Of a DNA stretch of 35,717 nucleotides, positions 10,668 through 35,717 are shown one piece after another. The position numbers and the translations under genes were made by a program. Source of the stretch: a virus; IMG/VR virus record IMGVR_UViG_3300006099_000051, one strand, 5' to 3'. The notes beneath the pieces were generated by a model. It had not been told where the DNA came from. It worked only from the letters and a program-made list of their open reading frames with translations, and made no database searches. Numbering within the stretch: position 1 is the first letter of the stretch; every line of letters begins with the position of its first letter.

Positions 10668-10678
10668 GAGACCATAAG

Positions 10679-11317: not shown

Positions 11318-11346
11318 CTGGATTATATTTTCAATTAAAAAAATGC

Positions 11347-11386: not shown

Positions 11387-11438
11387 GAAAAACTGTAACT
11401 GATTAGTTGCAGTTTGACGCCTTTTCTATTTGCTAAAA

Positions 11439-11468
11439 ACCGCTTTGCGTTGCAAGGCGGTTTTTTTT
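11439..11468 (+). terminator. Intrinsic terminator in the leader downstream of late promoter copy A
   Basis: accgctttgc-gtt-gcaaggcggt forms a 10-bp stem, followed by T8. It lies directly upstream of the fibre gene RBS aagggagg. Confidence 0.85.
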
Positions 11469-11485
11469 GTTGTAAGGGAGGAATT

Positions 11486-11848: not shown

Positions 11849-11859
11849 TGAGGGCGGAT

Positions 11860-12873: not shown

Positions 12874-12877
12874 TAGT

Positions 12878-13917: not shown

Positions 13918-13926
13918 GGGCAAAAT

Positions 13927-16328: not shown

Positions 16329-16589
16329 ATGGCTAAAATAACAGGCGAGTTGCGGAAGCTCGGGAAAAAAAATCCAGAATTATTGTTGCAAAAACTCGAG
16401 GCGGTGGAACTTACTGACCTCGAGTTTCTTATTATGAGGCTTCGTTATATTGACGGGTTGGTATTTAAACAGATACCGGACATTGCCGGCGTATCGGAGC
16501 GGTGGGTTTATAAAGTGCATAAAAAGGCTGCTCAAAAGACAGCTGCCAGTATAAAATTGGCGGAATGGCTGGCTTTAACCGGACGGTAA
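16329..16589 (+). CDS. Small sigma-70 region-4-like HTH protein
   Basis: 86 aa. LTDLEFLIMRLRYIDGLVFKQIPDIAGVSERWVYKVHKKAAQK resembles sigma region 4 / LuxR-type HTH. Confidence 0.55.
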   Translation: MAKITGELRKLGKKNPELLLQKLEAVELTDLEFLIMRLRYIDGLVFKQIPDIAGVSERWVYKVHKKAAQKTAASIKLAEWLALTGR

Positions 16590-18010: not shown

Positions 18011-18295
18011 ATGGACTATTTGGCTTTATTTGTTTCATTTTGTGCGGGAATTTGGAATGTGCTGCAAGATACGTCAAAATTAATTTCGAGAAAAGTATGC
18101 GCCTTTATGTTAGGCGCTATTTTTTGTTACGGCGCGGTTAAAATTGCCAGTTCTTACGGCTTGTCGCATGAAGCTGCAGCCTGTGTGGGGTATTTCTTGG
18201 GCGTATTGAGCATAACCATCTATGACGTCACTGTGCAGTGTTTGCATAAAATTCCCGTGATTTTTGAAAAAAGAATGGGAGGTAAACATGATTGA
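18011..18295 (+). CDS. Holin (about 3 TM)
   Basis: 94 aa with three hydrophobic segments and a charged C-terminus. It lies immediately upstream of, and overlaps, the endolysin gene. Confidence 0.7.
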   Translation: MDYLALFVSFCAGIWNVLQDTSKLISRKVCAFMLGAIFCYGAVKIASSYGLSHEAAACVGYFLGVLSITIYDVTVQCLHKIPVIFEKRMGGKHD

Positions 18296-18758
18296 TATGA
18301 GCGAAGCCGTGCAGCGTTTGACGTTGCACGAGGGAATCCGTTTGCAGCCTTATCGCTGTCCTAAGGGATATTTGACAATCGGGGTCGGTCGAAATTTAGA
18401 TACGAATCCGCTGACGCCGGAAGAAAAAAGGCTGTGCGGCGATTATATGCACGGAATTATTAAAGAGCAGGCTTTTTATTTGCTACGCAATGATATTCGC
18501 CGGGTGGTTAAAGAATGTGAGCAACATATTCCATTTTGGAATGAGTTGGATGACGAGCGACAATATGCGCTAGTTGATATGGCGTTTAATCTGGGCATAA
18601 AGGGATTGCTGGGGTTTAAGAAAATGCTGAGTTATTTAGGCGTTGGCAATTATATCAAAGCCGCTGCGGAATGTTTGGCATCGCGTTATGCCAAAGAAGT
18701 TGGACGGCGCGCCGTCAGAATCTCAGAAATTATCCGGACCGGCAAATTTAAGCTATGA
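18288..18758 (+). CDS. Endolysin, GH24 (T4-type) lysozyme
   Basis: RBS gggagg upstream of the ATG at 18288. LHEGIRLQPYRCPKGYLTIGVGRNL...RQYALVDMAFNLG carries the E...D...T lysozyme signature. Confidence 0.9.
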   Translation: MIDMSEAVQRLTLHEGIRLQPYRCPKGYLTIGVGRNLDTNPLTPEEKRLCGDYMHGIIKEQAFYLLRNDIRRVVKECEQHIPFWNELDDERQYALVDMAFNLGIKGLLGFKKMLSYLGVGNYIKAAAECLASRYAKEVGRRAVRISEIIRTGKFKL

Positions 18759-20139: not shown

Positions 20140-21219
20140 TTAATCGATGAAAACTGAATCTAGTGCTTGACGTTTTTCATCGTCAAGCGTGTGCGCATAC
20201 TTTAATGTTGTATTGATATTAGCATGGCCTAAAAGTTCTTTTGTCGTTCTTAGATTTTTTGTTTTGCGCAAAACCCAAGTTGCAAAAGTATGGCGTAGTG
20301 TATGAAAGTTTGTGTAAGGCAAGGTTGGATCTTTCAATTCCCTACTAAAAGATTTTCTTGTGTTTCTTTTATAGAAAATATTGCGCCAAGCAGTAGAGAT
20401 GCTTTTGATTGGTTTATTTTTATAGTTAAAAACATAGTTATTAATTTTGGGTTGATTTTCAAGGATCGCCATTAAAGGCTTGGCAATTGGCATTGTGTGG
20501 ATTTTTCCTCCGGATTTTGTGGAATCCTTGACTTTCAATGTTATTTGTCCGGTGTTAAAATCTATTTCTGACCATTTAAGATTAAGGATGTTACTTTCGC
20601 GAAATCCTGTATAGAGTGCCGTATATATAATTGGCTTTAAATGATCCGCAGCTTTATCTATTATTCTTTGAGCATAATTCCAATCTTTCAGATATTTGAT
20701 ATTTTCAGCAGGTTCTTTAAGTTTAAATTTTGAAAGCCTGATGGGGTAAGTTTTTACTTTCCATTCTTCGTTTGCGGTTCTTAAAACGGCGGAAAGAAGG
20801 TAAAGATAGCGGTTTATTGTGGAATTGCTTAGTGTGCCGCGATTTTGAGTAATGAAGCTGTTTATTTGCAGTTCGGTAATTTCGTGTAAATAGTATATTT
20901 TTAAATCATGTTTGAGTTTTGATAAGCGGCTTAATCTTTGTTGGGGGAGAGTTAGATATTGGCCTTTTTCCTGAAAATAACGGGCAAACGCCTCGTCAAT
21001 GGTTATGCAGGGCAATTCACCATTGGCTTGTTGACGAGCTTTCTTTTGCAATTGCGCAATTCTCTTGATGCAATATTGGATTGCTTTTGCTTCATCCGTT
21101 GTTCGAGTAGTCTCTCTAAACTGTATTCTGGCTCCGTTTTCGTCAATATACGAGATATAGGCATGGTAGATGTCGCCTCTTTTGAACAATCTATATGGTT
21201 CGTTGTGTCGTTTTGCCAT
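20140..21219 (-). CDS. int: Tyrosine integrase
   Basis: 359 aa. The C-terminus HTLRHTFATWVL...LLGHANINTTLKYAH carries the R..HxxR..Y catalytic pattern. It is adjacent to the tRNA-derived attP. Confidence 0.95.
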   Translation of the reverse strand: MAKRHNEPYRLFKRGDIYHAYISYIDENGARIQFRETTRTTDEAKAIQYCIKRIAQLQKKARQQANGELPCITIDEAFARYFQEKGQYLTLPQQRLSRLSKLKHDLKIYYLHEITELQINSFITQNRGTLSNSTINRYLYLLSAVLRTANEEWKVKTYPIRLSKFKLKEPAENIKYLKDWNYAQRIIDKAADHLKPIIYTALYTGFRESNILNLKWSEIDFNTGQITLKVKDSTKSGGKIHTMPIAKPLMAILENQPKINNYVFNYKNKPIKSISTAWRNIFYKRNTRKSFSRELKDPTLPYTNFHTLRHTFATWVLRKTKNLRTTKELLGHANINTTLKYAHTLDDEKRQALDSVFID

Positions 21220-22321: not shown

Positions 22322-22552
22322 TTACTCCCTAATCTCAAACAAATCGTTGATATTAGCTTTGCTTTTGCCGATATATGTTTCAGTAGTATATCCCCATAAA
22401 AATGCTCCCTGAAAATCCTCAGTAATACAATAAGGATTGACAAAGTCAGATGTATTAATGACTATAGCTTTATACGTTCCTGCGTTAGGGTCATATATTT
22501 CCCATATATCGCCAACTTGTGGTTTATTTTCACTCACTTTCTCTACCCTCAT
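22322..22552 (-). CDS. Hypothetical early protein (76 aa)
   Basis: ORF in the coupled leftward gene string. No motif recognised. Confidence 0.6.
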   Translation of the reverse strand: MRVEKVSENKPQVGDIWEIYDPNAGTYKAIVINTSDFVNPYCITEDFQGAFLWGYTTETYIGKSKANINDLFEIRE

Positions 22553-22916
22553 AAAAAGTTACTTCATCTCTGCGTACGGGGCGGCACTTTTTAAACCCCA
22601 TATTGTTGTTATCTTCAAAAGGATATTCTTCATCCATGTTGACTGAGATTAGCAATCCTGTTTCTCTCCTTCCTAAGCCATTATCCCAAAGCCAGCACAG
22701 ACATTTATTTTTGATGATATAATCCCAATCAATAGGCTCTTGGTAAATTTCCCAATCATCCGCTGTTAATTCGTTAGGTTCTAAAAAGTAACTGTCACCG
22801 TATTCATCTTTTGCATACAATCCACATAATTTAATATATTTTTTCTCTCCCCAATCTTTTCGCCTAATCTTTGCCCCGTTTCTGAACTCGGGCAAAAGTT
22901 CTTCTAAATATGACAT
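22530..22916 (-). CDS. DUF2829 (Tad2-like) N-terminal domain protein
   Basis: The ATG at 22916 follows RBS ggaga. LLPEFRNGAKIRRKDWGEKKYIKL...LTADDWEIY matches the DUF2829 pattern (GKKxxRxxW...yi...DllAxDWei). Confidence 0.6.
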   Translation of the reverse strand: MSYLEELLPEFRNGAKIRRKDWGEKKYIKLCGLYAKDEYGDSYFLEPNELTADDWEIYQEPIDWDYIIKNKCLCWLWDNGLGRRETGLLISVNMDEEYPFEDNNNMGFKKCRPVRRDEVTFYEGRESE

Positions 22917-22920
22917 TGGC

Positions 22921-23055
22921 TTATCTCCATAAAATGGCAGCATGAACTACCGCGCCGAATAAGCAAACAACAAAAGCTGAAGCGCGCTTTTCTATAATAG
23001 CGATAACAACAAGTGCGCAAAACCATCCAAATACGAAACAATTAAAATCAAACAT
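22921..23055 (-). CDS. Small membrane protein (44 aa, below the track cutoff)
   Basis: RBS aaggag upstream of the ATG at 23055. MFDFNCFVFGWFCALVVIAIIEKRASAFVVCLFGAVVHAAILWR has two hydrophobic segments. Confidence 0.45.
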   Translation of the reverse strand: MFDFNCFVFGWFCALVVIAIIEKRASAFVVCLFGAVVHAAILWR

Positions 23056-23117: not shown

Positions 23118-23654
23118 TTAAAGCTTAACAGCGAGAACCGGCCTGACGTAGAGATTGTAATGGTACTTACTGCCGTAGGCCCTATAACCATACCTCATAG
23201 CGAATAGCCACGCATCGATAATATCGTACTCGGTAGAGGACCAATACCAGCTTTCCAGTTTTTCACCGTTTGCGGCTGTTAATCCGGCATTTACGTCCTC
23301 GATATTTAAGTGAATTAATGTTAACTCCCGGATGTCGGGGACGCGATATCCTTCAGGTAATTCTAACCCCATGGCTTTGTTCCAAGTAAATTCATCTTCG
23401 CAGTCTTCATCTTCAAAATCTTTTAGCGATACGAAAACGCCATAAAATCCGTCTTCTTTTTTGAGTTCTCCTGCGTATACGCCTTTGTCCGGGTAGTGTT
23501 TGCCAACTTCGTAGATTTTGCGCAGCTGCTCCATCGGCGTTTCGGACTGTTCCGCTTCTTTAGCCGGGATAATCAGTGCAAGTTCCGGATAGTCGCCGTG
23601 CATATGGGCGTTTAAAATTTCTTCATGGGTTTCAAGCATTATAACGTTTTTCAT
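23118..23654 (-). CDS. DUF1566 (Lcl C-terminal-like) domain protein, paralogue 1
   Basis: The C-terminus ...VPDIRELTLIHLN...WYWSSTEYDIIDAWLFAMRYG...YVRPVLAV matches the xWSSTE...AW...G...VRPV signature. Confidence 0.7.
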   Translation of the reverse strand: MKNVIMLETHEEILNAHMHGDYPELALIIPAKEAEQSETPMEQLRKIYEVGKHYPDKGVYAGELKKEDGFYGVFVSLKDFEDEDCEDEFTWNKAMGLELPEGYRVPDIRELTLIHLNIEDVNAGLTAANGEKLESWYWSSTEYDIIDAWLFAMRYGYRAYGSKYHYNLYVRPVLAVKL

Positions 23655-24608: not shown

Positions 24609-24650
24609 AGGGTGTTCCTCCGGCTAAATAGGTGAATCGATAAAGTAAAT

Positions 24651-25055
24651 TTATAAAGCGAGAACCGGCCTGACGTAGTTATTGCTACCGTTCTTATAGT
24701 AGTAGTTCCTATTACCAATATTCATAGTGAATCTCCACGCACTGTAATTAGTGAACTCGGTAGAGGACCAGACTGTTTCATCATCAATGGGGGTAAATCC
24801 AGCAGCCGTGAGGGATTGGTTCAAAACCCCTTTATTGTCATAAATCGCTTGGCATTGGCGCAGATTGGGCATTTCGGCAAAAAGTTCCTCACATTCCTTT
24901 TTTCCGTCGTACCAGTCAACATCTTCAATCATCTCCGGATGCATGGCAAAGGCGTGATACTCATCTTCAACGACTACAATGCCTTTGAACTTTTTGTTCT
25001 CGTCAAACTCCGGGCTGATGGTCCCGTCAAAATAAGCGTAATCTCCTGTTTTCAT
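24651..25055 (-). CDS. DUF1566 domain protein, paralogue 2 (first gene of the leftward early operon)
   Basis: ...MPNLRQCQAIYDNKG...VWSSTEFTNYSAWRFTMNIG...YVRPVLAL. RBS aggag. Confidence 0.7.
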   Translation of the reverse strand: MKTGDYAYFDGTISPEFDENKKFKGIVVVEDEYHAFAMHPEMIEDVDWYDGKKECEELFAEMPNLRQCQAIYDNKGVLNQSLTAAGFTPIDDETVWSSTEFTNYSAWRFTMNIGNRNYYYKNGSNNYVRPVLAL

Positions 25056-25381: not shown

Positions 25382-25981
25382 TTTAAAAATCCATACATCC
25401 AATTTCTTATTGATTTGATTTAGCCATTTTTTTTGTGATTCTGTTGGTGTTGGTGAATGGGCGTGGATGGTAAGGCCGACTATCATATCGGCTAATTGGA
25501 TAAGGCGGTTATTTTTAGAATCTTCGTATTTTATTTTTGCTACATTGTTGCCTGCTTGAGAACGAATATAGTTAATAAGTTCAGTTTTAACTGAATCTTT
25601 TTTGCCGTCTAATTTTACAGAGGCGTTATTTAGTCTAGCGTGAGTTAAAACCTGTTTGAGGAAAAAGTTATAAAATTTATTAGCGTTACTGCGCAATTCT
25701 GAGCTGTTTACGAGTTTTTTGTTTACATAGAGGATTTTTGCGCGGAAATGACAGGCAGATATTTCTTGAAAAAATATATCTTTTACGCGATTGCAAGTTT
25801 TTGAGTATTTGAATTCAGAAAGGTGTCTTGCTTGTGTTGCAATGTGATTTATGGTTAATTCAGTATCCTCGGCATCCTTGGAATCTTCAAATATGATTAG
25901 GGCAAAAGCAAAGTTTTGCGAGGAATTTGCTTTAAATCCAGGATCGCCGCTTTCATCTATAAAAACTAATTGCTTAGTCAT
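25379..25981 (-). CDS. DUF3800 domain protein, translationally coupled to the repressor gene
   Basis: The N-terminus LVFIDESGDPGF and the C-terminal LIQLADMIVG match the DUF3800 pattern. Its ATG overlaps the cI stop (TAATG). Confidence 0.75.
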   Translation of the reverse strand: MTKQLVFIDESGDPGFKANSSQNFAFALIIFEDSKDAEDTELTINHIATQARHLSEFKYSKTCNRVKDIFFQEISACHFRAKILYVNKKLVNSSELRSNANKFYNFFLKQVLTHARLNNASVKLDGKKDSVKTELINYIRSQAGNNVAKIKYEDSKNNRLIQLADMIVGLTIHAHSPTPTESQKKWLNQINKKLDVWIFK

Positions 25982-26733
25982 TATCCTACCTTTTCCGCTT
26001 TAAGTGTGTAAATAATGCGGCCGAGAATGATAATATCTGATAATTTGGCATTTTCGTCTTTATAGTGCTGGTTGTCAGATAGAATTCTTATGGTGTTGGG
26101 TTCGGCGGAGCCTTGCAGGCGTTTGACGGCCAAGCCGGTGGAAAGGTGCAACAAATATATGCCGTCTGATTCCGGTGCGCGGCGCGAGGTATCTGTCAGC
26201 ACCCAGTCGCCGTCTTTTAAGGTTGGTTCCATGCTGTCGCCGCAGATGCGCAGCATTTTTATTTTGTCAGGCGTAGATGTATGAGAAATTGTGCGGAAAT
26301 CTTCGGTCGATATAATCCATTGGCCGGAGACGTTTTCGGAAAAGTTGTCAATCCCGTTGCCACAACAGGCGGTAACGTCCAGAATATCAATGGCGATATT
26401 GTCGGCAGGGGCTTTTTTGAAGAAGGAAGAAACGGTGTTGACGATTTTTTCGGCCGCGGCGGTGGTACCGGAAGTCGGAAGAGATAATGAGATTTTATCA
26501 GCTTTTCCCAAATTGTACGCGGTTAATTCACCTAAATCTAGGTTAAAAAATTTTGCAATATTATAAAGTTTGCTGGAAGGAATGTCTCTTTTATTGGATA
26601 ACAATTCAGAAACGCGTGCTTGATTCCAGTCAACTTTTTCCGCAAATTCTGCCTGGCTTATTTTGCGCTGCGTTAATATGTCATTCATCCATTGCCATTT
26701 ATTCATTGTTTTTTTTTGCCTCTTTTTATACAT
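25981..26733 (-). CDS. cI: CI/LexA-type repressor (HTH_XRE + S24 peptidase)
   Basis: ISQAEFAEKVDWNQARVSELLSNKR is the HTH. GDSMEPTLKDGDW...GLAVKRL is the S24 Ser/Lys signature. The start is at 26733 (possibly leaderless) or 26706. The track ORF upstream of these starts is non-coding. Confidence 0.9.
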   Translation of the reverse strand: MYKKRQKKTMNKWQWMNDILTQRKISQAEFAEKVDWNQARVSELLSNKRDIPSSKLYNIAKFFNLDLGELTAYNLGKADKISLSLPTSGTTAAAEKIVNTVSSFFKKAPADNIAIDILDVTACCGNGIDNFSENVSGQWIISTEDFRTISHTSTPDKIKMLRICGDSMEPTLKDGDWVLTDTSRRAPESDGIYLLHLSTGLAVKRLQGSAEPNTIRILSDNQHYKDENAKLSDIIILGRIIYTLKAEKVG

Positions 26734-26740
26734 ATTGTGT

Positions 26741-26768
26741 ATAATATCACATTTTTTTTGTTTGTAAA
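26741..26768 (-). promoter_or_regulatory. PRM-like repressor-maintenance promoter
   Basis: On the minus strand: TTTACA (26768-26763), 16 nt, TGaTATTAT (26749-26741). The ATG at 26733 lies about 8 nt after the -10, so the transcript may be leaderless. Confidence 0.5.
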
Positions 26769-26782
26769 ATGCATAAAATGAA

Positions 26783-26812
26783 TTGACATTATTCGTTTTG
26801 TGAATATATATA
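26783..26812 (+). promoter_or_regulatory. PR-like early-right promoter with an embedded operator
   Basis: TTGACA (26783-26788), immediately followed by TTATTC-n6-TGAATA (26789-26806) and a TATATA -10 region. cro starts at 26831. Confidence 0.75.
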
Positions 26813-26830
26813 AATGGTAGGAGGTGCAAA

Positions 26831-27028
26831 ATGCAAATACGAGCCAATAAAATTATAGAAGAATTTGGAGGAGTTTGTCGAATGGCAAAAGCTCTTGGTA
26901 TTTGGCCGAGTGTTGTGCAGGGGTGGAAAAATCGAAATAAGATTCCGATTTGGCGAATGTCTGTAATTTTATCCAAAGCAGCTGAAATGAATATTGATTT
27001 GGCTGATATAGATGATGGAGAGGAATAG
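26831..27028 (+). CDS. cro: Cro-like small HTH regulator
   Basis: 65 aa. FGGVCRMAKALGIWPSVVQGWKNRNKIP resembles Cro/YdaS-type HTH. RBS ggaggtg. Divergent from cI. Confidence 0.8.
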   Translation: MQIRANKIIEEFGGVCRMAKALGIWPSVVQGWKNRNKIPIWRMSVILSKAAEMNIDLADIDDGEE

Positions 27029-27691
27029 ATGGATATTTCGTCTCTGGAAAACAAAATTATCAATGCAGATTGTCTGGATATTCTTAAACAGCTGCCGGAT
27101 AAGTGCGTTGATTTAGTGCTGACTGACCCGCCGTATGGGATAGGTAATAAATTTACATCGGAATATGGTTTACAAGTTCAGAAAAGCAAGAGGGGGAGTT
27201 TTTCTTGGAATGATGCAATTCCATCCAAAGAAATTTTTGACGAAATTAAACGTGTTTCAAGGAATCAAATAATATTTGGCGGTAATTATTTTACAGAATA
27301 TTTGAAGCCGACAAATTCATGGCTGATTTGGGATAAGGTGGGGGAATATAATTTAAAGAATCCTTTTTCCGATTGTGAATTAGCATGGACAAGTTTTAAA
27401 AAGCCGATGCGCAAATATACGATTGTTAATATGGGGTTTATTTCCCAATCTGAAGAAAAAGGTAAAAGAATTCATCCGACTCAAAAGCCATTAAAGCTCT
27501 TTCAGAAAATTTTATCTGATTTCAGCAAGGAAAATGACCTTGTTCTTGATTGTTTTTCCGGTTCGGGGACGACAGCGGTGGCGTGTCATAAGCTAAAACG
27601 GCGGTTTATTTGTATTGAAAAAGATTTTGACTACTGGAAGTCCAGCGTTGCCCGGCTGGATGAGGTTCAGAGGCAGGGCAGTTTGTTTTAA
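27029..27691 (+). CDS. DNA methyltransferase, N6-adenine/N4-cytosine type (beta class), orphan
   Basis: LVLTDPPYG (motif IV) precedes VLDCFSGSGTTAVA (motif I). HPTQKPLKL is also present. No adjacent endonuclease. Confidence 0.9.
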   Translation: MDISSLENKIINADCLDILKQLPDKCVDLVLTDPPYGIGNKFTSEYGLQVQKSKRGSFSWNDAIPSKEIFDEIKRVSRNQIIFGGNYFTEYLKPTNSWLIWDKVGEYNLKNPFSDCELAWTSFKKPMRKYTIVNMGFISQSEEKGKRIHPTQKPLKLFQKILSDFSKENDLVLDCFSGSGTTAVACHKLKRRFICIEKDFDYWKSSVARLDEVQRQGSLF

Positions 27692-27951: not shown

Positions 27952-28566
27952 ATGGAAGATATGAATATGGTGGCGCATTGTGTTGCTATTGGCGGTGTGG
28001 GGATGGTGTTGGGAGCTGTTGTTTCTTGGCTATATTGTGTATTAGCCGCCGGCAGCCCCAGCGGGGCAGGCACCGGCAGCGCCCCCGGCGGGGGAGACTT
28101 CACAGGCACGGAGATGCCTAATCCTCGCACATGCCAGTGTGTTCGGAGGCATGACGGAAAGGATGGTGACGTTGTAACGGCGGAAATTGAAGTTATTCCA
28201 GAGATTGGGGAATATGTAAAAGGCCGCGGGGTATATGCCGGTATTAACCGGAGCGGCAAGCATTTGTATGTACGCTTGAAAGATCATTTGATGGAGATGA
28301 GCTGGAGCGGGATGATGAAGCAGTATAAGCCGGAAAATCTGCCGACAATCGAAGATTTGGTGTTGATTTATATTCACAATGACAAAATTAACGCGGGCTT
28401 GATTGCTGCAGGCGGGCAGCCGTTAAAGGAAGATGGTTTCTATTGGTCCTCTACCGAGATCTATTATAACTACGCGTGGAAGTTCAGTATGCATAATGGT
28501 CGCAGGTACAGCACCAGTAAGTACTCTAGCAATGGCTACGTCAGGCCGGTTCGTTTGTTGGGATAA
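27952..28566 (+). CDS. DUF1566 domain protein, paralogue 3, with an N-terminal TM segment and a Gly/Pro-rich linker
   Basis: VAIGGVGMVLGAVVSWLYCVLAA is the TM segment. The C-terminus reads NLPTIEDLVLIYIHNDK...FYWSSTEIYYNYAWKFSMHNG...YVRPVRLL. Confidence 0.7.
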   Translation: MEDMNMVAHCVAIGGVGMVLGAVVSWLYCVLAAGSPSGAGTGSAPGGGDFTGTEMPNPRTCQCVRRHDGKDGDVVTAEIEVIPEIGEYVKGRGVYAGINRSGKHLYVRLKDHLMEMSWSGMMKQYKPENLPTIEDLVLIYIHNDKINAGLIAAGGQPLKEDGFYWSSTEIYYNYAWKFSMHNGRRYSTSKYSSNGYVRPVRLLG

Positions 28567-28573
28567 GTCGCCA

Positions 28574-28963
28574 ATGAAGAAAATGCATGCGCTTAAAGGA
28601 AAAGCTCAAGAATTAGCGAAAAAGTTTGGAGTTTCGCAGGAAATAGCAGACAGCTTTAGTTATGAGGATGAAGAAATGGAAAAAGAGCCTAAGATGCAAA
28701 TTGTTTATGATGCAGACAATGACAGTAAGAATATTCAACTGTCGGCCGATCGGTTGCGGTCATTGATTGAACGAGTGGAGCGTTTGGAGGAGGAAAAGGC
28801 AGCCATCGGCTCGGATATTCGCGATGTTTTTGCCGAAGCGAAAAGCGCGGGGTTTGACGTGAAATGTATGCGGGCGGTTATTAAGCTGCGGAAGATGAAT
28901 GCCGCGGATCGTGATGAGCAAGAGCTGTTGCTGGATACTTATTGCAAAGCTTTGGATATGTAG
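28574..28963 (+). CDS. GapR / DUF2312 (UPF0335) family DNA-binding protein
   Basis: LRSLIERVERLEEEKAAIGSDIRDVFAEAKSAGFDVKCMRAVIKLRKMNAADRDEQELLLDTYCKALDM aligns closely with the GapR core as I recall it. The ATG is at 28574; the track ORF starts further upstream. Confidence 0.8.
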   Translation: MKKMHALKGKAQELAKKFGVSQEIADSFSYEDEEMEKEPKMQIVYDADNDSKNIQLSADRLRSLIERVERLEEEKAAIGSDIRDVFAEAKSAGFDVKCMRAVIKLRKMNAADRDEQELLLDTYCKALDM

Positions 28964-29027: not shown

Positions 29028-29202
29028 AAATGGCCGGCAATGCCAGAGAAAGATTTCGGGGAGTATGAACGGAAGGCGGGCGCAGGCGTCCGTGAAGATG
29101 CAAACCATAAGGCAGAAAGCCGGTTCCCCGATTTACTGACATGACCGGCGAAATTTGCATCAACCTGCGCAGATTTTTTTTTATTCAATTAAGGATTTTG
29201 TG

Positions 29203-30084
29203 ATGGTGAAAATAAAATACATTGATTTGTTTTCCGGAATTGGCGGATTTACGCTGGGATTACAAAACGCCGGAATTGAATTTGACAGGCATTATTTTAG
29301 CGAGATAGATAAAAACGCTATTTCCATTTATAAAAAACATTTTCCAGCAGCAAAGGCGTTAGGCGATGTCACAACAATTAGAACTTTTTCAGGAATATCG
29401 GCCGATCTCATTACCTTCGGATTTCCCTGTCAAGATCTTTCATATGCTGGCAAAAGGCAAGGTTTGGCAGGCGCACGAAGCGGTTTGTTCTTTGAAGCGT
29501 TGCGGATTGTCAGGCAAGTTAAGCCTAAATATTTTATCTTTGAAAACGTCAAGGGATTGTTTACAAGTGACGGAGGAGCGGACTTTGTCAGATGTCTGCG
29601 AGAAATTGCCGACATTGGGCTATATGACTGCGAATGGCAGCTTGTTAATACAAGCTGGATATTACCCCAAAATCGAGAGCGGATATACTTTATCGGACAT
29701 CTTAGAGGAGCATCCTCCCCGAAAGTATTTCCTATCCGCGGACAGGCAGAAGAAAATAATAAATTTATTAAAGAAGCGCGGCGAGATTTAACCGTTTGGC
29801 CGGTGTGCGACATTACTTCTGCAAGTAAAATGCAAACTGGGCGGATGATTGGCGGTAGAAATGCATTTACTTTGACTACACGCAATATGCAGGGTGTTTG
29901 GAACGGGGAAAATTTTCGTTTTTTGATGCCGGTGGAGAGAGAACGTTTGCAGGGATTTCCCGATGGATGGACGGCCGAAGGAATAAACGGCGAAATAATA
30001 TCAGATAACGTTCGCGCAGAATTATTGGGGCGAGCCGTAACGGTGGGTATGGTTCAATTAATAGCACAGAAGTTATTCAATTAA
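29203..30084 (+). CDS. DNA (cytosine-5) methyltransferase, orphan
   Basis: DLFSGIGGF (motif I), FPCQDLS (IV), FENVKGL (VI), QNRERIYFIG (VIII), RERLQGFPDGW and GRAVTV (X). Confidence 0.92.
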   Translation: MVKIKYIDLFSGIGGFTLGLQNAGIEFDRHYFSEIDKNAISIYKKHFPAAKALGDVTTIRTFSGISADLITFGFPCQDLSYAGKRQGLAGARSGLFFEALRIVRQVKPKYFIFENVKGLFTSDGGADFVRCLREIADIGLYDCEWQLVNTSWILPQNRERIYFIGHLRGASSPKVFPIRGQAEENNKFIKEARRDLTVWPVCDITSASKMQTGRMIGGRNAFTLTTRNMQGVWNGENFRFLMPVERERLQGFPDGWTAEGINGEIISDNVRAELLGRAVTVGMVQLIAQKLFN

Positions 30085-30095
30085 AGGATTTAAGG

Positions 30096-31343
30096 ATGGC
30101 GGAATTTTTGCGGCGGCAGATTATGATACCGGACAGGGTGTATAATACTCTCCGGCGTTATGATCCGTTGGTGGCGTGGGAGGTTTTTGAAGCTATTCGG
30201 GTTTATGCGCATTACTGGGATGTCCACCGCAGTGATGATGGATTTGATTTGGCTGCTTTATCGGCAGATGCCAAGGCTGTTTTTTTATCAATTTATGACG
30301 AATTATATGAGTGTAACAGCGCCTATTTTGAGCGCTGTGCTTTGGCGCGGCAGGCTGCGGTGGAAAAAAACAGGCAGGACAAGCAGCGCAAACAGACGCG
30401 GGAGCGTGTCAAAAAATATCGGCAGAAAAATAAAAAATGTAACGCAAAAAGCGCTGATAATAGACAGAAAAGCGTTACAGTAACGCAATGTAACGCAAAA
30501 AATGGACAAGCGCAAAATTCGGCGCAAAATCAGTCTGTATATAGTGTTGCGGCTAAAAGTGTAACGCTTGACAAAAATGGGAATTATACAAAAAAAGCGT
30601 TACAGAATTTCCCTCAAAGCCAGAGCCAGCAAGGGATTGCGGAGAATTGTGCAGGATATAAGGATTATTGTAATACCTCATTACATTCGGTATTACAGGA
30701 TTACTGGAAAGGGGGTATGGGGGAAAACCAAGTTATGCACAAGCTGGGTGCGCCGGCACGGCCGGAGCGTTCACGGGTACTAGGGGAAGCTGGGGGTGCT
30801 GAGATGACAAGTTATGCTTCCCTCGCTGGGGGCAGTAACCAGACAAGCGGTTTGTCTTGCAGTAAGGCAGTGCCGGGCATACGAGACCCCGAACCCATTA
30901 TGCCCGGCAGCCGCAGCGCGGCAGGCAGTAAGGCAGATGACCGTGAGGGCAGTAAGCCGGCAGTAAAGGGCAGTGAGGAAATAGGGGGCAATAAGGGGCG
31001 CTTGAGCAGTAAGGATAGTGAGGTAATAAGCAGTAAGCGGCTTGACGCCGCTGTGCGGCCTACGGCCGGGATTAGCAAGGTTGAAGTGCCGCCTTTGCCA
31101 AGTGCGCCTCATAAACCGGCTGCGCATGAGGTTTTAATTACCAAAGGCTTCAAAATCGATTTGACAGATGAATTTTTTTACCCTTACCGGCGGGCGGATG
31201 GGTTTTTGCTGCGTGGGGTGGAAAATTGGCTGGCGGCTAACAAAAGGGGCTGTTCGGTCGAAAAACGTTGGATTTGCAAGCAAATCTACAAATTTGCCGA
31301 AAGGCAGGGGAAGCTAGAACAGCTTCTCGGCGTGTCTGACTGA
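30096..31343 (+). CDS. Putative replication initiator / replisome organiser (lambda O-like role)
   Basis: 415 aa, at the position of a lambdoid replication gene. It has a basic K/R/Q-rich segment, two internal DNA repeat arrays and a conserved-looking C-terminal domain. No helicase or primase gene is present in the genome. Confidence 0.5.
   Translation: MAEFLRRQIMIPDRVYNTLRRYDPLVAWEVFEAIRVYAHYWDVHRSDDGFDLAALSADAKAVFLSIYDELYECNSAYFERCALARQAAVEKNRQDKQRKQTRERVKKYRQKNKKCNAKSADNRQKSVTVTQCNAKNGQAQNSAQNQSVYSVAAKSVTLDKNGNYTKKALQNFPQSQSQQGIAENCAGYKDYCNTSLHSVLQDYWKGGMGENQVMHKLGAPARPERSRVLGEAGGAEMTSYASLAGGSNQTSGLSCSKAVPGIRDPEPIMPGSRSAAGSKADDREGSKPAVKGSEEIGGNKGRLSSKDSEVISSKRLDAAVRPTAGISKVEVPPLPSAPHKPAAHEVLITKGFKIDLTDEFFYPYRRADGFLLRGVENWLAANKRGCSVEKRWICKQIYKFAERQGKLEQLLGVSD
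30438..30604. repeat. Six copies of TGTAACGC in both orientations inside the replication gene (candidate origin iterons)
   Basis: Forward at 30438-30445, 30480-30486 (GTAACGC), 30489-30496 and 30560-30567. Inverted (GCGTTACA) at 30472-30479 and 30597-30604. Flanked by A-tracts. Confidence 0.7.
30831..31037 (+). repeat. Eight or more direct copies of (G/A)GCAGTAA(G/A) in a GC-rich stretch of the replication gene
   Basis: Copies start at 30831, 30859, 30924, 30948, 30959, 30969 (GGCAGTGAG), 31005 and 31029. They are read as Gly/Ser-Ser-Lys codons. Confidence 0.7.
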
Positions 31344-31374: not shown

Positions 31375-31851
31375 ATGAGAGTAAGTAGTGATGAAACTTA
31401 TATCAGCAAAAAGGACTTGGTTCGCACGGATGAAAAGCCTTTTAACCGATTTGTCCGCCGCTACGGGACTTGGTATCGCCGCAGTGCGCTAGAGGTTATT
31501 TATGAAGAAACGGATTGGCTTGCCTATTGTGACGATGATGTTTATAACGCGCTTAATCGTTTTACTGTCGCCAAGCGGTATTTTGGCGATTTCAAGAAAT
31601 CCGGATTGGGAGAAGTCGGCGTTCCAAACATGGCAAAAATAAAAGTTGATGGCGGTTTTAAAGGCTTTGGCAAGTCATCTGCATATATGGAAAGCGCTGA
31701 AAGCCGGTATATTCAGGCCTCTCGTGCTGTTGCTGCTTGGGTTTTGCCTATATTGCAGAGGGTATGTCTTGAGGACAAACTTATTGATAAGGCTCAGGCG
31801 CATCATTTGTGCGCTGGATTGGACTATTTGATTTTTTATTATTTGCATTAA
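31375..31851 (+). CDS. Hypothetical protein; candidate late-gene regulator by position (Q-like slot)
   Basis: 158 aa. RBS agggaga. It is the last sizeable early-right gene, upstream of the terminator and late promoter. No motif recognised. Confidence 0.45.
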   Translation: MRVSSDETYISKKDLVRTDEKPFNRFVRRYGTWYRRSALEVIYEETDWLAYCDDDVYNALNRFTVAKRYFGDFKKSGLGEVGVPNMAKIKVDGGFKGFGKSSAYMESAESRYIQASRAVAAWVLPILQRVCLEDKLIDKAQAHHLCAGLDYLIFYYLH

Positions 31852-31928
31852 AAATTTCATGTTGATGTCTTGTATATGTGATGAGGGTGCTTATATCTTT
31901 TGTCGAATGAAACAAAAAGGAGTTGGCT

Positions 31929-32075
31929 ATGATTGATATGATCACGACTTACTATCTTTTCTTATTTTTTTGCGGTGTCTTTTCTGATGTTAAGCAAGGG
32001 CGCGGATACCCAGTTATTTTAATGGCGTTTCTTTTGGAGATTCCCAAAGCCGGGCGATTTTTTGGGATTTGGTAA
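31929..32075 (+). CDS. Small hydrophobic protein (48 aa, below the track cutoff)
   Basis: RBS aaaggag upstream of the ATG at 31929. MIDMITTYYLFLFFCGVFSDVKQGRGYPVILMAFLLEIPKAGRFFGIW has two hydrophobic segments. Confidence 0.45.
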   Translation: MIDMITTYYLFLFFCGVFSDVKQGRGYPVILMAFLLEIPKAGRFFGIW

Positions 32076-32095
32076 AAGCTTCTGATGGGGGGAAG

Positions 32096-32130
32096 ATGAG
32101 ACTGTTTGGGGAGGCAGTCTCATTTTTTTT
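32096..32130 (+). terminator. Intrinsic terminator ending the early-right operon
   Basis: atgagactg-n10-cagtctcat followed by T8. Confidence 0.85.
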
Positions 32131-32152
32131 ATTATTTCACGAAAAAAAGTTC

Positions 32153-32192
32153 TTGACTTTATCCACAGGGGGATGTAGTGTTTTTCTATAGT
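32153..32192 (+). promoter_or_regulatory. Late promoter, copy B
   Basis: TTGACT (32153-32158), 17 nt, TAGTGT (32176-32181), 5 nt, TATAGT (32187-32192). Near-identical to 11347-11386. Confidence 0.65.
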
Positions 32193-32213
32193 GAAAAATT
32201 GTATGTATATGAA

Positions 32214-32243
32214 ACCCCGCGGGCGTGAGCTTGGCGGGGTTTT
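32214..32243 (+). terminator. Intrinsic terminator in the late leader (first of three)
   Basis: accccgc-n13-gcggggt followed by tttt. Confidence 0.65.
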
Positions 32244-32330
32244 CTGACTCGAAAATACGCGCACGATAATATTTTATTGGGCGCAATGCCTTTAAATGCA
32301 AGGCTTTTAGGCGATTGTTAAAACTTGAAT

Positions 32331-32355
32331 AAACGGCTGATTCAGCCGTTTTTTT
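32331..32355 (+). terminator. Intrinsic terminator immediately upstream of terS
   Basis: aaacggctg-att-cagccgttt followed by T7. A weaker hairpin, gcctt-n7-aaggc-tttt, lies at 32288-32308. Confidence 0.8.
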
Positions 32356-32391
32356 GTGGAAATTTGGGAAAGATGGCGGCGAGGAGGGAGA

Positions 32392-32886
32392 ATGGAGAGC
32401 AAAGAAGAATATTTGGTTAAGTTTAAAAAATGGGGGTTATTGGGCGGTCGGCCGCGGGCTTTTAAAAATCCCCGCGATATGGCTGAGCAGATGGCGGCTT
32501 TTTTGGAACAAGCGCAGAACCGCAGAGTGGAGCGGATTACCAAAAGCGGGCTAGTGACGGCCAATATTCCGGCGCCGACAACCATTGAGGCTTTTTGTGA
32601 TTATTGCGGAATTACCAAGACAACTTTTTACGAGTATGACAAAAAGCCGGAATTTAAGCCTTTGACGCAGTATTACGCGACTAAAGTGGAAAAATACTGG
32701 GTTGACCAATGTGCCGAGGGGATGCCGGGCAATAAAGCCGATTTCATTCTCAAAAATGCCTTTGGCGGCAGCTGGAAAGAGGAAAGCAGCGTTAAAATGG
32801 ATGTGACGCAGGCTTTGGTTGGTTTTGTTGATACTGGCGAGGATGACAATGGAGACAATTCGGGTAAACATACCGAGGCCTTTTGA
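32392..32886 (+). CDS. terS: Terminase small subunit (Terminase_2-like)
   Basis: RBS gaggaggga upstream of the ATG at 32392. PAPTTIEAFCDYCGITKTTFYEY...GNKADFILKNAFGGSWKE matches the small-terminase pattern. Confidence 0.85.
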   Translation: MESKEEYLVKFKKWGLLGGRPRAFKNPRDMAEQMAAFLEQAQNRRVERITKSGLVTANIPAPTTIEAFCDYCGITKTTFYEYDKKPEFKPLTQYYATKVEKYWVDQCAEGMPGNKADFILKNAFGGSWKEESSVKMDVTQALVGFVDTGEDDNGDNSGKHTEAF

Positions 32887-34171
32887 GCCGTTGCTGCGGG
32901 AAAAGTGGCGCTATAAGTTTTATTATGGCGGCCGCGGTGGGGGAAAGTCTTATGCTTTTGCCGACAGCATTTTGATGATTGGGCGGCAGCGAAAGGTGTT
33001 TGTGGCTTGTTTGCGTGAAATTCAGGACTCCATTAAAGATTCTGTTTACAAACTCTTAAGTGATCGTATCAGCCATTATGGGCTGAATGATTACCGGATA
33101 TATGAAGATAGGATTGACAATATAGTCACCGGAACTCGTATTATTTTCAAAGGATTGCGCGATCAAGACCCGCAAAAAATTAAATCGCTTGAGGGCGTGG
33201 ATATTGCATGGATTGAAGAAGCTCAGACTATTACCAAAAAGTCTTGGGATATTTTAGACCCGACTATTCGTAAGGATGGCTCGGAAATCTGGATTTCCAT
33301 GAACCGGATGGAAGTAAACGATGCTTTGTGGAAAATCTTGGCGGCTAACCCGGATGAGCGGACTTTGGTGCGCAAGGTAAATTATTATGATAATCCCTTT
33401 TGCCCGAATGAGATTAAGATTCAGGCCGAAAAATGCAAACGCGCGGATTATGAGGATTATTGCCATATTTGGCTGGGGGAACCTTTGGCGCAAGGCGATT
33501 ACAAGCTGATTAACGCGGAAAAGGTTCGGGAGGCTATGAAGCCAAAAATGGATGCCTCGACCTCGCCGTTGGTTATTGGGTTGGATATTGCCCGCGCCGG
33601 TTCGGATCGTTCTGTCTTTTGTTTCCGAAAAGGGCGGTGGGTTTATAAATTTCACGTTTTGCGCGGTTTTGACACGGTTGAACTGGCTGATTTGACGACC
33701 CGGTTTATCAAAGATTATCAGCCGGCAAGAGTGTTTTTGGATTTGGGAAATTCGGGAGCGGGCGTTTATGACATTTTAAGCCATCGCGGTTATGCCGAAG
33801 TGGTGAAAGGCATTAACTTTGGCGGAAAGGCTATACAGTCGGAGCGTTACAAGAATAAACGCGCGGAAATGTGGGACAGTGTGAATCAATGGCTGCGTCA
33901 GGATTTGCCGGTCGAACTGCCAAATGATGAAGAACTGTTTGACGAGTTGTGCGGCATTGAGCGGATTAAAGTGGCGCAAGATCAGTTGCAGCTTGAGGAT
34001 AAGGATGCTTTTAAGAAACGTTTGGGACGTTCGCCGGATAAGGCGGATGCTTTGGCCTTAACTTTTGCCGAGCCGGTTTATGACACCGGTCGGCCGAAGC
34101 TGTATGGCAACGGTTATGTAACTTTTGATGAATTATTTAACGATGCAGGAAAGGATAATGGCGGATGGTGA
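32849..34171 (+). CDS. terL: Terminase large subunit (PBSX/Terminase_3-like)
   Basis: Walker A YYGGRGGGKSY. Acidic nuclease-domain motifs in the C-terminal half. The start is at 32849 (RBS gagga) or 32843. It overlaps terS. Confidence 0.93.
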   Translation: METIRVNIPRPFEPLLREKWRYKFYYGGRGGGKSYAFADSILMIGRQRKVFVACLREIQDSIKDSVYKLLSDRISHYGLNDYRIYEDRIDNIVTGTRIIFKGLRDQDPQKIKSLEGVDIAWIEEAQTITKKSWDILDPTIRKDGSEIWISMNRMEVNDALWKILAANPDERTLVRKVNYYDNPFCPNEIKIQAEKCKRADYEDYCHIWLGEPLAQGDYKLINAEKVREAMKPKMDASTSPLVIGLDIARAGSDRSVFCFRKGRWVYKFHVLRGFDTVELADLTTRFIKDYQPARVFLDLGNSGAGVYDILSHRGYAEVVKGINFGGKAIQSERYKNKRAEMWDSVNQWLRQDLPVELPNDEELFDELCGIERIKVAQDQLQLEDKDAFKKRLGRSPDKADALALTFAEPVYDTGRPKLYGNGYVTFDELFNDAGKDNGGW

Positions 34172-34428
34172 TGAGAGCAATACTTGATAGAGTGTTTATT
34201 CGTTTAGACAGCAAGGAAAAGACAACAGCCGGCGGGATTATTCTCACCGAAAGTCACGAAAGTGAGCAGACTATCGGCACGGTGGAGGCTGTCGGGCCGG
34301 ATGTGGATTCCGTGAAAGTGGGGGAGCGAGTGCTTTTCCATGTGTTTGACGAGCTGCCGACTTATGATCCGGATGTGGTGGTGGTTCGTGAGAGTTCGCT
34401 GCTGGGCGTGTTTACTGACGAGGATTGA
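34165..34428 (+). CDS. GroES/Cpn10-like co-chaperonin
   Basis: ILDRVFIRLDSKEKTTAGGIILTESHESEQTIGTVEAVGPDV...VKVGERVLF aligns with GroES ([27 protein letters not shown]...GEVLAVGNG...VKVGDIVIF). It overlaps the terL stop. Confidence 0.8.
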   Translation: MVMRAILDRVFIRLDSKEKTTAGGIILTESHESEQTIGTVEAVGPDVDSVKVGERVLFHVFDELPTYDPDVVVVRESSLLGVFTDED

Positions 34429-34430: not shown

Positions 34431-35717
34431 ATGGAAAACGGAAATGATTTGTCTAAATCCGGAAAAGTAAAGCTTTGGCATGAGCGTTTATCTAGGGCTG
34501 AGGAAAAGTACCGAGCGTTTCATGAGCTGATTAAGGAGACGCGAGAGTACTACAAAAACGCCAAAGATAAGAATAATCATAATATTTTTTGGGCTTCAGT
34601 CGAAACGATGAAGCCTTTTTTATATTTCAAGCAGCCGCGGCCTTATATTGACCGGAAGAACAAAAATGATAATCCGGTGGAAGCGGCGGCCTGCAAGATT
34701 ATTGAGAAGGCTTTAGTTTGGGATTTGGCACAATTTGATTTTGACTCGGTGATTAAATATGTCCGCAATGATTTTCTGATTTCCGGAATGGGATTGGCCG
34801 AAGAAAAATATGAGGCGGAATTTGAAGACGTGGCTTGGGGTGATGAATTACAGGCTGTTAAATCCTCTGAAAAAGTGGTGACCTCATATATTGATCCGGT
34901 AGATTTTATTGTTGATGTCGAGAAGGTCGGCATCTGGGAAGATGTGACTTGGGTTGCGCGGAAAATCTGGATGACAAAACAGGAAGTCATAGACGCTTTT
35001 GGCAAAGAGGCGAAAGACCTGATTGTTGCGCCGGATGAAAAGGAATATCAGGGTAAGGACACTTTAATCTATAAAATATGGGATAAAACGTCCTCTCGTA
35101 TTTATTGGCTGTCAAAAGAATGCAAAACGGATTTTCTGAAAATCAGTGATGATTTGCTGAAGCTTAATGGTTTTTTTCCGATGCCGAAGCCGATTTTTGC
35201 AACGCAGAGCAATGATTGTCTTATTCCCGTGCCGGATTACAGCGAAATTAAGCCTTTGTTGGGGGAAATGAAAGGGATTGTCGAGCGGATGCGTTTGACG
35301 ATGAAAGCTTTAAAAGTCAGCGGCGCTTATGACAAGTCTTTTCCTGAATTGAGTGATATTTTGCGCAAAGATGTGACTTTGTTGGCGGTGCCTGATTTTC
35401 AGAAGCTTAAAGAAGCCGGCGGTCTGCGGGGAATTATAGATTTTGCGCCGATTGAGCAATATGCGCAAGTGTTGGTTAATTTAGCGCAGCGGCGTCAGGA
35501 AATTAAAGCCGAGTTGTTTGAAATCACCGGCGTGTCGGACATTATGCGAGGAAACTCTGACCCGAGGGAAACCGCCTCCGCCGTGCGGCAAAAGACCAAT
35601 TTTGGCAGTTTGCGCAACCAAGACCGGCAGAATGATATGCAACGCTTTATATCTGATTTGTTCCGGTTAAAAGCCGAAGCTATTTGCGAATGTTTTGAGG
35701 CGGAAAGGCTGGCGGGG
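34431..35717 (+). CDS. Portal protein, N-terminal 429 codons. The ORF runs off the window end and continues at 78..638, about 615 aa in total.
   Basis: ATG at 34431, just after the upstream stop. No stop codon through 35717 (1287 nt). It sits after the terminase, and its size and the ITGVSDIMRGNSDPRETASAVRQK segment are portal-like. Confidence 0.85.
   Translation, partial: MENGNDLSKSGKVKLWHERLSRAEEKYRAFHELIKETREYYKNAKDKNNHNIFWASVETMKPFLYFKQPRPYIDRKNKNDNPVEAAACKIIEKALVWDLAQFDFDSVIKYVRNDFLISGMGLAEEKYEAEFEDVAWGDELQAVKSSEKVVTSYIDPVDFIVDVEKVGIWEDVTWVARKIWMTKQEVIDAFGKEAKDLIVAPDEKEYQGKDTLIYKIWDKTSSRIYWLSKECKTDFLKISDDLLKLNGFFPMPKPIFATQSNDCLIPVPDYSEIKPLLGEMKGIVERMRLTMKALKVSGAYDKSFPELSDILRKDVTLLAVPDFQKLKEAGGLRGIIDFAPIEQYAQVLVNLAQRRQEIKAELFEITGVSDIMRGNSDPRETASAVRQKTNFGSLRNQDRQNDMQRFISDLFRLKAEAICECFEAERLAG
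35641..35717. repeat. Terminal overlap identical to 1..77
   Basis: Direct comparison gives 77/77 nt identity with the window start. Confidence 0.97.

Follow-up and report, generated by a model that had tools for sequence, protein, structure and literature searches.

How are the late genes of the phage in IMG/VR record IMGVR_UViG_3300006099_000051 switched on, when the promoter in front of the first of them is followed by transcription terminators? We analyzed the whole stretch of 35,717 nucleotides (nt) in this record, referred to here as the window. Its positions 1–77 are identical to 35641–35717, an exact 77-bp terminal duplication, and because of this identity the window is a complete circular genome of ~35,640 bp, that of a temperate tailed phage (~35.6 kb), whose host is probably an uncultured gut alphaproteobacterium. 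The gene in question is the final substantial gene of the rightward early operon and lies immediately 5′ of a late promoter. An initial annotation, made from the letters alone, had placed the protein of 158 amino acids (aa) that it encodes in the slot of lambda Q and had suggested that it could represent a new antiterminator family. The slot is as described, i.e., the end of the early operon, immediately upstream of the late promoter and then the terminators. As judged from profile comparisons, however, the protein is very probably a divergent member of the DUF6456 / GafA-C / GafZ family, homologous to GafZ, and we lean towards promoter-loaded, lambda-Q-like processive antitermination of the late genes as its role. 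The switch region contains the following features, with free energies (dG) in kcal/mol:

31375–31851, + strand, gene for the 158-aa GafZ-like protein, with a good ribosome-binding site (RBS)
31929–32075, + strand, conserved hydrophobic micro-ORF (open reading frame) of 48 aa, same size and position in relatives (34–39% identity)
32092–32134, + strand, intrinsic terminator T0, which ends the early operon (16-bp stem, dG –19.7, z –6.2, U8)
32129–32203, + strand, copy B of a 75-nt repeat (A/T-rich upstream region and late promoter), 81% identical to copy A
32153–32192, + strand, late promoter B (–35 TTGACT at 32153–58; –10 TAGTGT at 32176–81; TATAGT at 32187–92 around the predicted start site)
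32211–32248, + strand, hairpin T1 (hairpin 32211–32243), candidate first leader terminator (dG –21.3, z –3.8, then UUUUCU)
32236–32322, + strand, sequence-conserved leader block of ~85 nt immediately 5′ of terS, which includes hairpins 32259–32284 and 32288–32308
32331–32358, + strand, intrinsic terminator T2, 34 nt before the terS ATG at 32392 (9-bp stem, dG –11.9, U7)
32392–32886, + strand, terS of the GP3_package type, the first late gene (PF16677, 1.9e-6; phrog_606, 6e-15)

To identify the 158-aa protein, we relied on relatives rather than on the single sequence. The initial annotation had recognized no family in it, and direct searches indeed give no Pfam or PHROG match; tblastn with the protein against 50,697 GenBank phage records also returned no match, and in these records a strong DUF6456 member or the GafZ C-terminus matched only two metagenomic entries, unannotated or hypothetical. 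IMG/VR scans with the protein family, terS and the promoter patterns found nothing. A word-indexed search with the 158-aa protein recovered only three relatives, and the profile of these four sequences, run against 1.84 billion representatives, recovered 28 proteins of 126–243 aa. In the aligned family, PF20057 (DUF6456) was matched by 19 of 31 members, the best at 4.4e-14. Six of the ten members tested singly reached or passed the gathering score of PF20057 (26.3 bits): P0006–P0010 and P0016 scored 26.3–47.3 bits over positions 20–135 of the 136 in the profile (their residues ~44–158), and P0004, which is 45% identical to the 158-aa protein, scored 22.6 bits, below that threshold. In the literature, DUF6456 has been linked with GafA, which activates the gene transfer agent (GTA) of Rhodobacter.

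For direct comparison, the sequences of GafA, GafY and GafZ were read by optical character recognition from Supplementary Fig. 8 of Tran & Le 2024 (PMC11150451). PF20057 spans residues 228–366 of GafA (3.9e-56) and 109–242 of GafZ (9.4e-44), and GafY is a DnaA-domain-IV (Bac_DnaA_C) protein. Aligned with GafZ by hhalign, the 31-sequence family gave 93.9% (E 1.5e-7, 118 columns), with residues 47–157 of the window protein placed on GafZ 119–242. The motifs D/ERL.AG.R...D, K.RVDG, A..R..KA and.VC.. are common to the family and GafZ, as is a C-terminal helix ending ..L...Y. When GafZ was used as a phmmer query against all 249 ORFs of the window, the 158-aa ORF was the top match, at E 0.027. The protein can thus be divided into residues ~47–157, which correspond to the DUF6456 domain of GafZ/GafA, and residues 1–46, a small family-specific N-terminal domain. 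A model from AlphaFold 2 (AF2) based on 24 homologues reached a predicted local distance difference test score (pLDDT) of 78.4 and a predicted template-modelling score of 0.71 (with 4 sequences the pLDDT was 41 and the model unusable); in BFVD it matched uncharacterized phage proteins, one of them labelled DUF6456. The family profile found only a kinesin, at E 1.1, among all PDB chain sequences. These results argue strongly for homology to GafZ, and with that homology a new antiterminator family is ruled out. The initial annotation had also seen no similarity to known Q proteins, and in this it was correct: lambda Q against the family gave 0.1% in hhalign, and the structure-prediction check found neither Q-lambda nor Q21 with Foldseek.

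GafZ offers a precedent for the role of such a protein, since it is the experimentally shown antiterminator of the Caulobacter GTA (PMC11150451). At PgtaT, the GTA promoter, GafZ binds an element in the interval from –35 to –10; it travels with RNA polymerase and NusA/G/E, and both the terGTA repeats and rrnB T1 require it for read-through (PMC11150451). The window system resembles that of GafZ (CCNA_01112, Caulobacter crescentus) in the homologous DUF6456 domain, in having a terS-first head–tail cluster as its probable target, in a candidate element within the –35/–10 spacer of the late promoter, in the terminators downstream and in a repressor-controlled cascade. It differs in that GafZ has 244 aa against 158 aa for the window protein, which is without the ~105 N-terminal residues of GafZ and has an unrelated N-terminal domain of ~46 aa instead. 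In addition, the gafZ gene lies elsewhere on a bacterial chromosome, whereas the window gene is in a bona fide phage and adjoins its probable target; and the terminators of the GafZ system are three 150-bp repeats after the first gene, whereas those of the window are short canonical hairpins 20–170 nt from the promoter. A further difference is the partner: a GafY-type (DnaA-domain-IV) protein is encoded beside GafZ homologues in 494 of 759 cases (PMC9632790), whereas a low-sensitivity phmmer search found no partner in the window. GafA (rcc01865, Rhodobacter capsulatus RcGTA) has the homologous DUF6456 domain at its C-terminus and is a direct activator of the particle genes that binds the –10/–35 region, but it is a 382-aa fusion with an N-terminal helix–turn–helix (HTH) and a central region that binds the omega subunit of RNA polymerase, and neither part is in the window protein.

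To ask whether the position of the gene is a property of the family, we recovered the contexts of 9 homologues by independent protein look-ups and those in 27 GTDB species-representative genomes, giving more than 30 loci. Most of the 27 genomes are titled Alphaproteobacteria metagenome-assembled genomes (MAGs), and the names of several refer to samples from gut or rumen (human, deer, sheep). In every recovered context the homologue lies just 5′ of the same module, i.e., (micro-ORF)–promoter–terminator(s)–terS (GP3_package)–terL (Terminase_3)–Cpn10-like gene–portal-position ORF; the contigs of the closest homologues, P0001, P0002 and P0003, end short of the promoter. On the phage-like contigs L011, L047 and L048 the GafZ-like gene is the last of an early operon in which GapR is also encoded, together with a homologue of the 415-aa protein whose gene lies upstream of the GafZ-like gene in the window; in the L002-type MAG elements the GafZ-like gene comes first, facing an S24 repressor. 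Based on this adjacency to the promoter–terminator–terS–terL module, the 158-aa protein is likely to be a positive regulator of the late genes. The chain of homology and this synteny were observed, as was the anatomy of promoter and terminators described below, which recurs in relatives.

The micro-ORF belongs to the same module. The initial annotation had listed it as a 48-aa hydrophobic ORF, and it is real and conserved: relatives of 42–48 aa with the motif M..I..Y.LF...G...LE[IL]P..GR.F..W were found in L002 (6570–6713), L005, L008, L011, L013, L014, L047, L048 and many MAG loci. Members of this family always lie between the GafZ-like gene and the late promoter, following the homologue in most loci. 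The product could be a small membrane protein.

In the compact elements of gut and rumen Alphaproteobacteria MAGs (L002–L010, L013–L015, L018–L035, L043), an S24 repressor gene and a conserved 86-aa ORF diverge from the GafZ-like gene, and the micro-ORF, terS, terL, Cpn10 and portal come directly after the GafZ-like gene. On their other side these elements border immediately on host genes (AnmK, L21, chromate transporter and others), and they have no visible early or replication module. They may be GTA-like elements or compact prophages.

We then considered the promoter. The late promoter that the initial annotation had called copy B does have a second copy, 81% identical over the 75-nt repeat, and the features there are:

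11323–11397, + strand, copy A of the 75-nt repeat, with late promoter A
11347–52 (–35), 11370–75 (–10 TAATGT) and 11381–86 (TATAGT), + strand, late promoter A
11390–11415, + strand, hairpin after promoter A (dG –11.4)
11435–11473, + strand, strong terminator after promoter A, before the tail-fibre ATG at 11487 (dG –18.6, U8)

Downstream of copy B comes terS, and downstream of copy A come the tail-fibre and lysis genes. Each late promoter consists of an A/T-rich stretch, TTGACT, a 17-nt spacer that starts with TTATCCACA, the –10, five T-rich bases, TATAGT and GAAAA(A/C)TG; the 15-mer TTGACTTTATCCACA is exact in both repeat copies. Both upstream hexamers (TAGTGT, TAATGT) retain the T, the A and the final T of a –10, its three most conserved positions. 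The pattern TTGAC[AT]-N27-30-[TC]AT[AG][AG]T has only two sites in the whole genome, on both strands, and these are late promoters A and B; the related loci, 248 kb in total, contain 29 such sites on the + strand vs one on the – strand. Both metagenome scans with the promoter pattern found nothing, and they yielded no leader closely related to that of the window. In the related loci, a promoter of this design always lies between the micro-ORF and terS. Window promoters A and B share the layout of –35, 17 nt, –10, 5–6 nt and a second –10-like hexamer with L011, L042, L047, L048 and the L002-type group; promoters of relatives read as follows:

L011, TTGACA-17-TATGAT-5-CATGAT
L005, TTGACA-17-TATAAA-6-TATAGT
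L047, TTGACA-18-TATAAA-5-TATCGT
L048, TTGACA-17-TTATGA-6-CATAAT
L042, TTGACA-18-TATAAA-6-TATGGT

The candidate binding elements in the spacer are TTATCCACA(G/A)GG in the window and, in relatives, the GC-rich partial palindromes CCGTCGGGYGG, GCAGGCAGCCTGC and GTGCCGCAC.

Which of these promoters are followed by terminators? The strong terminator that the initial annotation had put at 32096–32130 corresponds to T0, and the ~200-nt terS leader with terminators is likewise present. Of the three stacked terminators proposed within that leader, those at 32211–32243 (T1) and 32331–32358 (T2) are credible; 32288–32308 was ruled out as a terminator, since its dG is –5.5 and its z –0.2, and 71 of 200 shuffles fold equally well. 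An analogous terminator is at the place of T2 in L048. Promoter A, too, is followed by a hairpin and a terminator, which the initial annotation had not mentioned, and 3′ of this terminator the first tail-fibre gene has an RBS and then its ATG at 11487. Further strong terminators lie within the late region, e.g., at 9804 and 17973. Rfam gave no match in the window or in the leader, and a known cis-acting RNA (put-like or riboswitch) was ruled out by this result. In the related loci, one to four hairpin-plus-U-run elements lie directly 3′ of each promoter examined. A hairpin and U-run were kept in 14 of 14 distinct L002-type sequences (–12 to –22 kcal/mol) despite sequence changes; together with the L011 hairpins the range is –12 to –23 kcal/mol, again with a U-run. 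The L002-type hairpins were folded sequence by sequence, as RNAalifold on the 14 terminators failed when indels misaligned the 3′ arms. In the L002-type hairpins and the first hairpin of L011, the 5′ arm starts within or just after the second hexamer. In these relatives, therefore, the start site would be upstream of the second hexamer, and thus the upstream hexamer would be the –10 and TATAGT would fall in the initial transcribed region.

This anatomy is that of lambda PR′ followed by tR′, at the level of the sequence pattern: lambda has TTGACT-17-TAAATT-6-AACGAT and the window TTGACT-17-TAGTGT-5-TATAGT, the same geometry. AACGAT at PR′ is the sigma-dependent pause element where Q loads. Lambda Q, as well as Q21 and Q82, is also encoded at the end of an early operon, directly 5′ of the late promoter, with a terminator shortly downstream and a long late operon that contains further terminators. 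The systems differ in that the window protein has no sequence similarity to Q and no fold match to solved Q or AlpA, and in that lambda has one late promoter, whereas the window phage has two. BrrG, the Q21-like antiterminator of the Bartonella BaGTA, is of a different protein family, and Foldseek gave no Q21-like fold for the window protein.

From this comparison, we infer the following course of events for DNA binding, pausing, loading and antitermination by the window protein. Host sigma-70 RNA polymerase would start at the two near-identical late promoters, where a 17-nt spacer separates a consensus-like –35 from a –10 of the form T-A-...-T. At TATAGT, the hexamer at about +1 to +6, the polymerase would be held in a sigma-dependent pause close to the promoter. 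As long as the phage protein is absent, transcripts would end at the terminators 20–170 nt downstream. The GafZ-like protein made from the early operon would bind the promoter, the likely site being the spacer or the conserved initial transcribed GAAAAnTG, and would load onto the paused polymerase, so that the polymerase would become terminator-resistant and the late operons would be read through. Promoter A, which lies after the moron region, would allow a terminator-resistant complex to form again, now for transcription of the tail-fibre and lysis genes. We regard this course as the more probable one, with some reservation; the functional guess of the initial annotation, an antiterminator in the Q slot, is then probably right.

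Several observations count against this interpretation, and they bear both on the homology and on the regulated step. The 158-aa protein alone gave empty scans of Pfam (E ≤ 0.1), PHROG and NCBIfam. When only the four closest sequences were compared with GafZ/GafA, hhalign gave 13% (E 0.002, 37 columns), and because this signal is weak, the homology to GafZ rests on intermediate sequences. Compared with the PDB by Foldseek, the AF2 model had an insignificant best match (E 1.7), with no Q-lambda, Q21 or AlpA among 25 matches. With GafY and the N-terminus of GafA as phmmer queries, none of the 249 window ORFs matched below E 0.5 in what is a low-sensitivity test. At T1 there are only four U's, and the conserved leader block begins within its 3′ arm and takes in its U-run; because of this overlap, the status of T1 as a terminator is less certain than that of T2. 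GafA was first interpreted as an initiation activator or sigma-like factor. In Caulobacter, loss of gafZ lowered PgtaT-lacZ 4-fold even without a terminator (PMC11150451).

The last two points belong to a different explanation, in which the GafZ-like protein acts on initiation at the late promoters, as a sigma-region-4-like activator or appropriator of the kind first proposed for GafA. TATAGT would then be the real –10, TTGAC and the spacer would be the activator site, and the hairpins would be insulators, attenuators or packaging signals. Beyond the 4-fold effect of the gafZ deletion, this explanation is consistent with the description of GafA and GafZ as having a sigma-region-4-like HTH and binding promoter DNA, and with TATAGT being a better –10 (5 of 6 positions) than TAGTGT or TAATGT (3 of 6); no –35 is found 17 nt upstream of TATAGT. 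The best PDB fold matches of the model, although insignificant, include an ECF sigma factor (E 9.3). As to membership in the sigma-70 family itself, the 158-aa protein has no Sigma70_r2 or Sigma70_r4 match, and the only fold hint was ECF sigma L, at E 9.3 and a template-modelling score of 0.31. Against initiation, the upstream hexamers keep the T and the A...T exactly 17 nt from a near-consensus –35 and after an A/T-rich region, and therefore the promoter should fire unaided. Moreover, a start 7 nt past the second hexamer would delete the hairpin, yet hairpin and U-run are kept in all 14 of the L002-type sequences, and terminators follow both window copies as well as every related promoter examined. 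We therefore consider a pure initiation factor unlikely. The initial annotation had held that late expression seems impossible without processive antitermination; the comparative data do tend to favour antitermination over initiation as the regulated step, but an initiation role is also possible in view of the 4-fold effect of GafZ.

Could another factor be the late switch, with the Q-like position of the 158-aa gene a coincidence? The candidates are an 86-aa ORF at 16329–16589, which has a weak Sigma70_r4 match (7e-5, below gathering), and host DnaA acting at boxes in the promoters; the link of the window protein itself to DUF6456, being indirect, leaves room for either. The 86-aa ORF, however, is inside the late region, 3′ of promoter A and of an endolysin-like gene, with no obvious promoter of its own, and it is without a counterpart in the related loci. 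The GafZ-like gene, in contrast, invariably adjoins the promoter–terminator–terS module in more than 30 loci, and in the compact MAG elements only the GafZ-like gene and a 47-aa micro-ORF lie between the repressor and the late operon. A switch that does not involve the 158-aa protein is thus highly improbable. The conserved 86-aa ORF of the MAG elements was considered as a GafY-like partner and as a homologue of ORF 16329–16589 and rejected, with no Pfam match and only 11% identity to ORF 16329–16589.

Perfect DnaA boxes are present in both late promoters. TTATCCACA, which we take to be a perfect consensus DnaA box, lies in the spacers at 11353–11361 and 32159–32167, and in the window there are 3 perfect boxes vs 0.2 expected, and 7 matches to TTATNCACA vs 1.35 expected. 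On the same strand, TTATCCACA is found near the homologous promoter in two further diverged lineages. In the L002-type lineage the box (L002 6642–6650) is inside the micro-ORF, 93–95 nt upstream of the –35; its codons TTA TCC ACA are invariant, while neighbouring synonymous sites vary, and its variants are TTATACACA in three loci, which changes only the N of TTATNCACA, and TTGTCCACA in one locus. In the L036-type lineage (L036, 3900–3908, and L039) the box is 27 nt upstream of a TTGACT-17-TATGTA promoter, which is followed by two terminators. Two reversed boxes are near the promoter in L047 (1320, 1869) and in L001 (884, 951), and none is near the promoter in L048, L016, L037/L041 or L042. That the late promoters are gated by host DnaA or a DnaA-domain-IV-like factor in addition to the GafZ-like protein is, on these grounds, a doubtful idea. 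If it is true, the phage systems may show an ancestral state in which late or particle genes are licensed by DnaA occupancy, i.e., by replication or nutritional status, and in the GTAs the place of host DnaA would later have been taken by a dedicated protein derived from DnaA; the idea arises because GafY/HdaB, the partner of GafZ, is a DnaA-domain-IV paralogue. The recurring boxes hint at a timing link between the replication initiator and the late genes.

A separate matter is the leader block at 32236–32322, which would have a role other than in transcription if it were a pac/terS-recognition region or a translational leader of terS, either of which is compatible with antitermination. The block can be aligned with L047 2394–2482 and L048 2428–2516, and its first 30 nt with L011 ~5800–5830; its sequence is GGGTTTTCTTACTCGAAAAT...AATGCCTT-N7-AAGGC...GATTGTTA. 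The block is conserved in sequence in three to four phages with related terS, while the promoter and terminators that flank it cannot be aligned. No covariation was found among the aligned relatives, in which the stems are invariant, and the block is absent after promoter A. In addition, the hairpin at 32288–32308 that it contains is no terminator by energy or U-run. Three sequences, however, carry little statistical power, and the block is transcribed within the leader, so an RNA role is equally possible. Taken together, this conservation suggests that the block may be a pac/terS-recognition site or a leader RNA; that it acts outside transcription seems to us conceivable, at somewhat less than even chances.

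The gene map is that of a temperate tailed phage, and the remaining genes are as follows:

20140–21219, – strand, integrase
25981–27063, – strand, CI-like HTH and S24 repressor
27029–27691, + strand, DNA methyltransferase (N6/N4), early operon
28433–28963, + strand, GapR-like DNA-binding protein, early operon (1.4e-32)
29155–30084, + strand, DNA methyltransferase (C5), early operon
30096–31343, + strand, 415-aa protein with a low-complexity centre, no family match
34165–34428, Cpn10/GroES-like gene, between terL and the portal-position ORF
10652–11317, Ant-type anti-repressor (moron)
11487–15846, tail-fibre genes; the ORFs downstream of promoter A match tail-fibre PHROGs
15843–16256, endolysin-like ORF 1 (phrog_7, 2.6e-6)
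16329–16589, 86-aa sigma-region-4-like ORF (Sigma70_r4 7e-5, below gathering)
18264–18758, endolysin-like ORF 2 (phrog_7, 5.8e-20)

The rightward early operon begins at ~27029 and encodes the N6-methylase, an Lcl_C-domain protein, the GapR-like protein, the Dcm methylase and the 415-aa protein. GapR is present in the early operons of L011 and L047 too. The L011 homologue of the 415-aa protein (3902–5008, 39% identity) is likewise encoded directly upstream of the GafZ-like gene; the 415-aa gene of the window contains a TTATGCACA box at 30733, and its product is possibly a replication protein. After the switch region the order is terS, terL, the Cpn10-like gene, a large portal-position ORF and the major head protein. 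The large ORF appears to occupy the portal position and to run across the circular junction, its position being taken from the related loci, in nearly all of which the Cpn10/GroES-like gene keeps the same place.

Between the upstream late genes (to 9687) and the tail-fibre genes is a moron-like insert, 9804–11320, of lower GC content (0.33–0.38 over 9–11 kb), with a strong terminator at 9804–9829 and promoters of its own at 9827 and 10476; the latter, TTGACT-17-TATTAT-5-TATAGG, has the layout of the late promoters without the DnaA box. The 86-aa sigma-region-4-like ORF lies between the two endolysin-like ORFs, within the late region. An imperfect 21-nt-periodic GC-rich (GCGGC-type) repeat array is at 13698–13829, within a tail-fibre-like ORF. 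Elsewhere, three paralogous ORFs have sub-threshold Lcl_C-terminal-domain matches (23118–23654 and 24651–25055 on the – strand, and 27952–28566 on the + strand), with a 125-nt direct repeat, 73% identical, common to two of them (23119–23243 and 24646–24770), and ORF 22530–22943 on the – strand has a sub-threshold match to Tad2 (Thoeris anti-defence 2; E 6.6e-5, 23.8 bits vs a cut-off of 25).

To our knowledge, GafA and GafZ have so far been known only as regulators of domesticated GTAs, and we know of no solution to the antitermination mechanism of GafZ, nor of a structure or a defined pathway for its loading. An intact temperate phage in which a small homologue without a partner is encoded next to short lambda-PR′-like target promoters and their canonical terminators would offer a minimal system for testing how DUF6456 proteins load onto RNA polymerase. 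The finding also supports a phage origin of GTA regulation, and it would assign a function to a widespread ‘hypothetical’ gene in prophages and GTA-like elements of gut Alphaproteobacteria, as recovered here from 27 species-level genomes.

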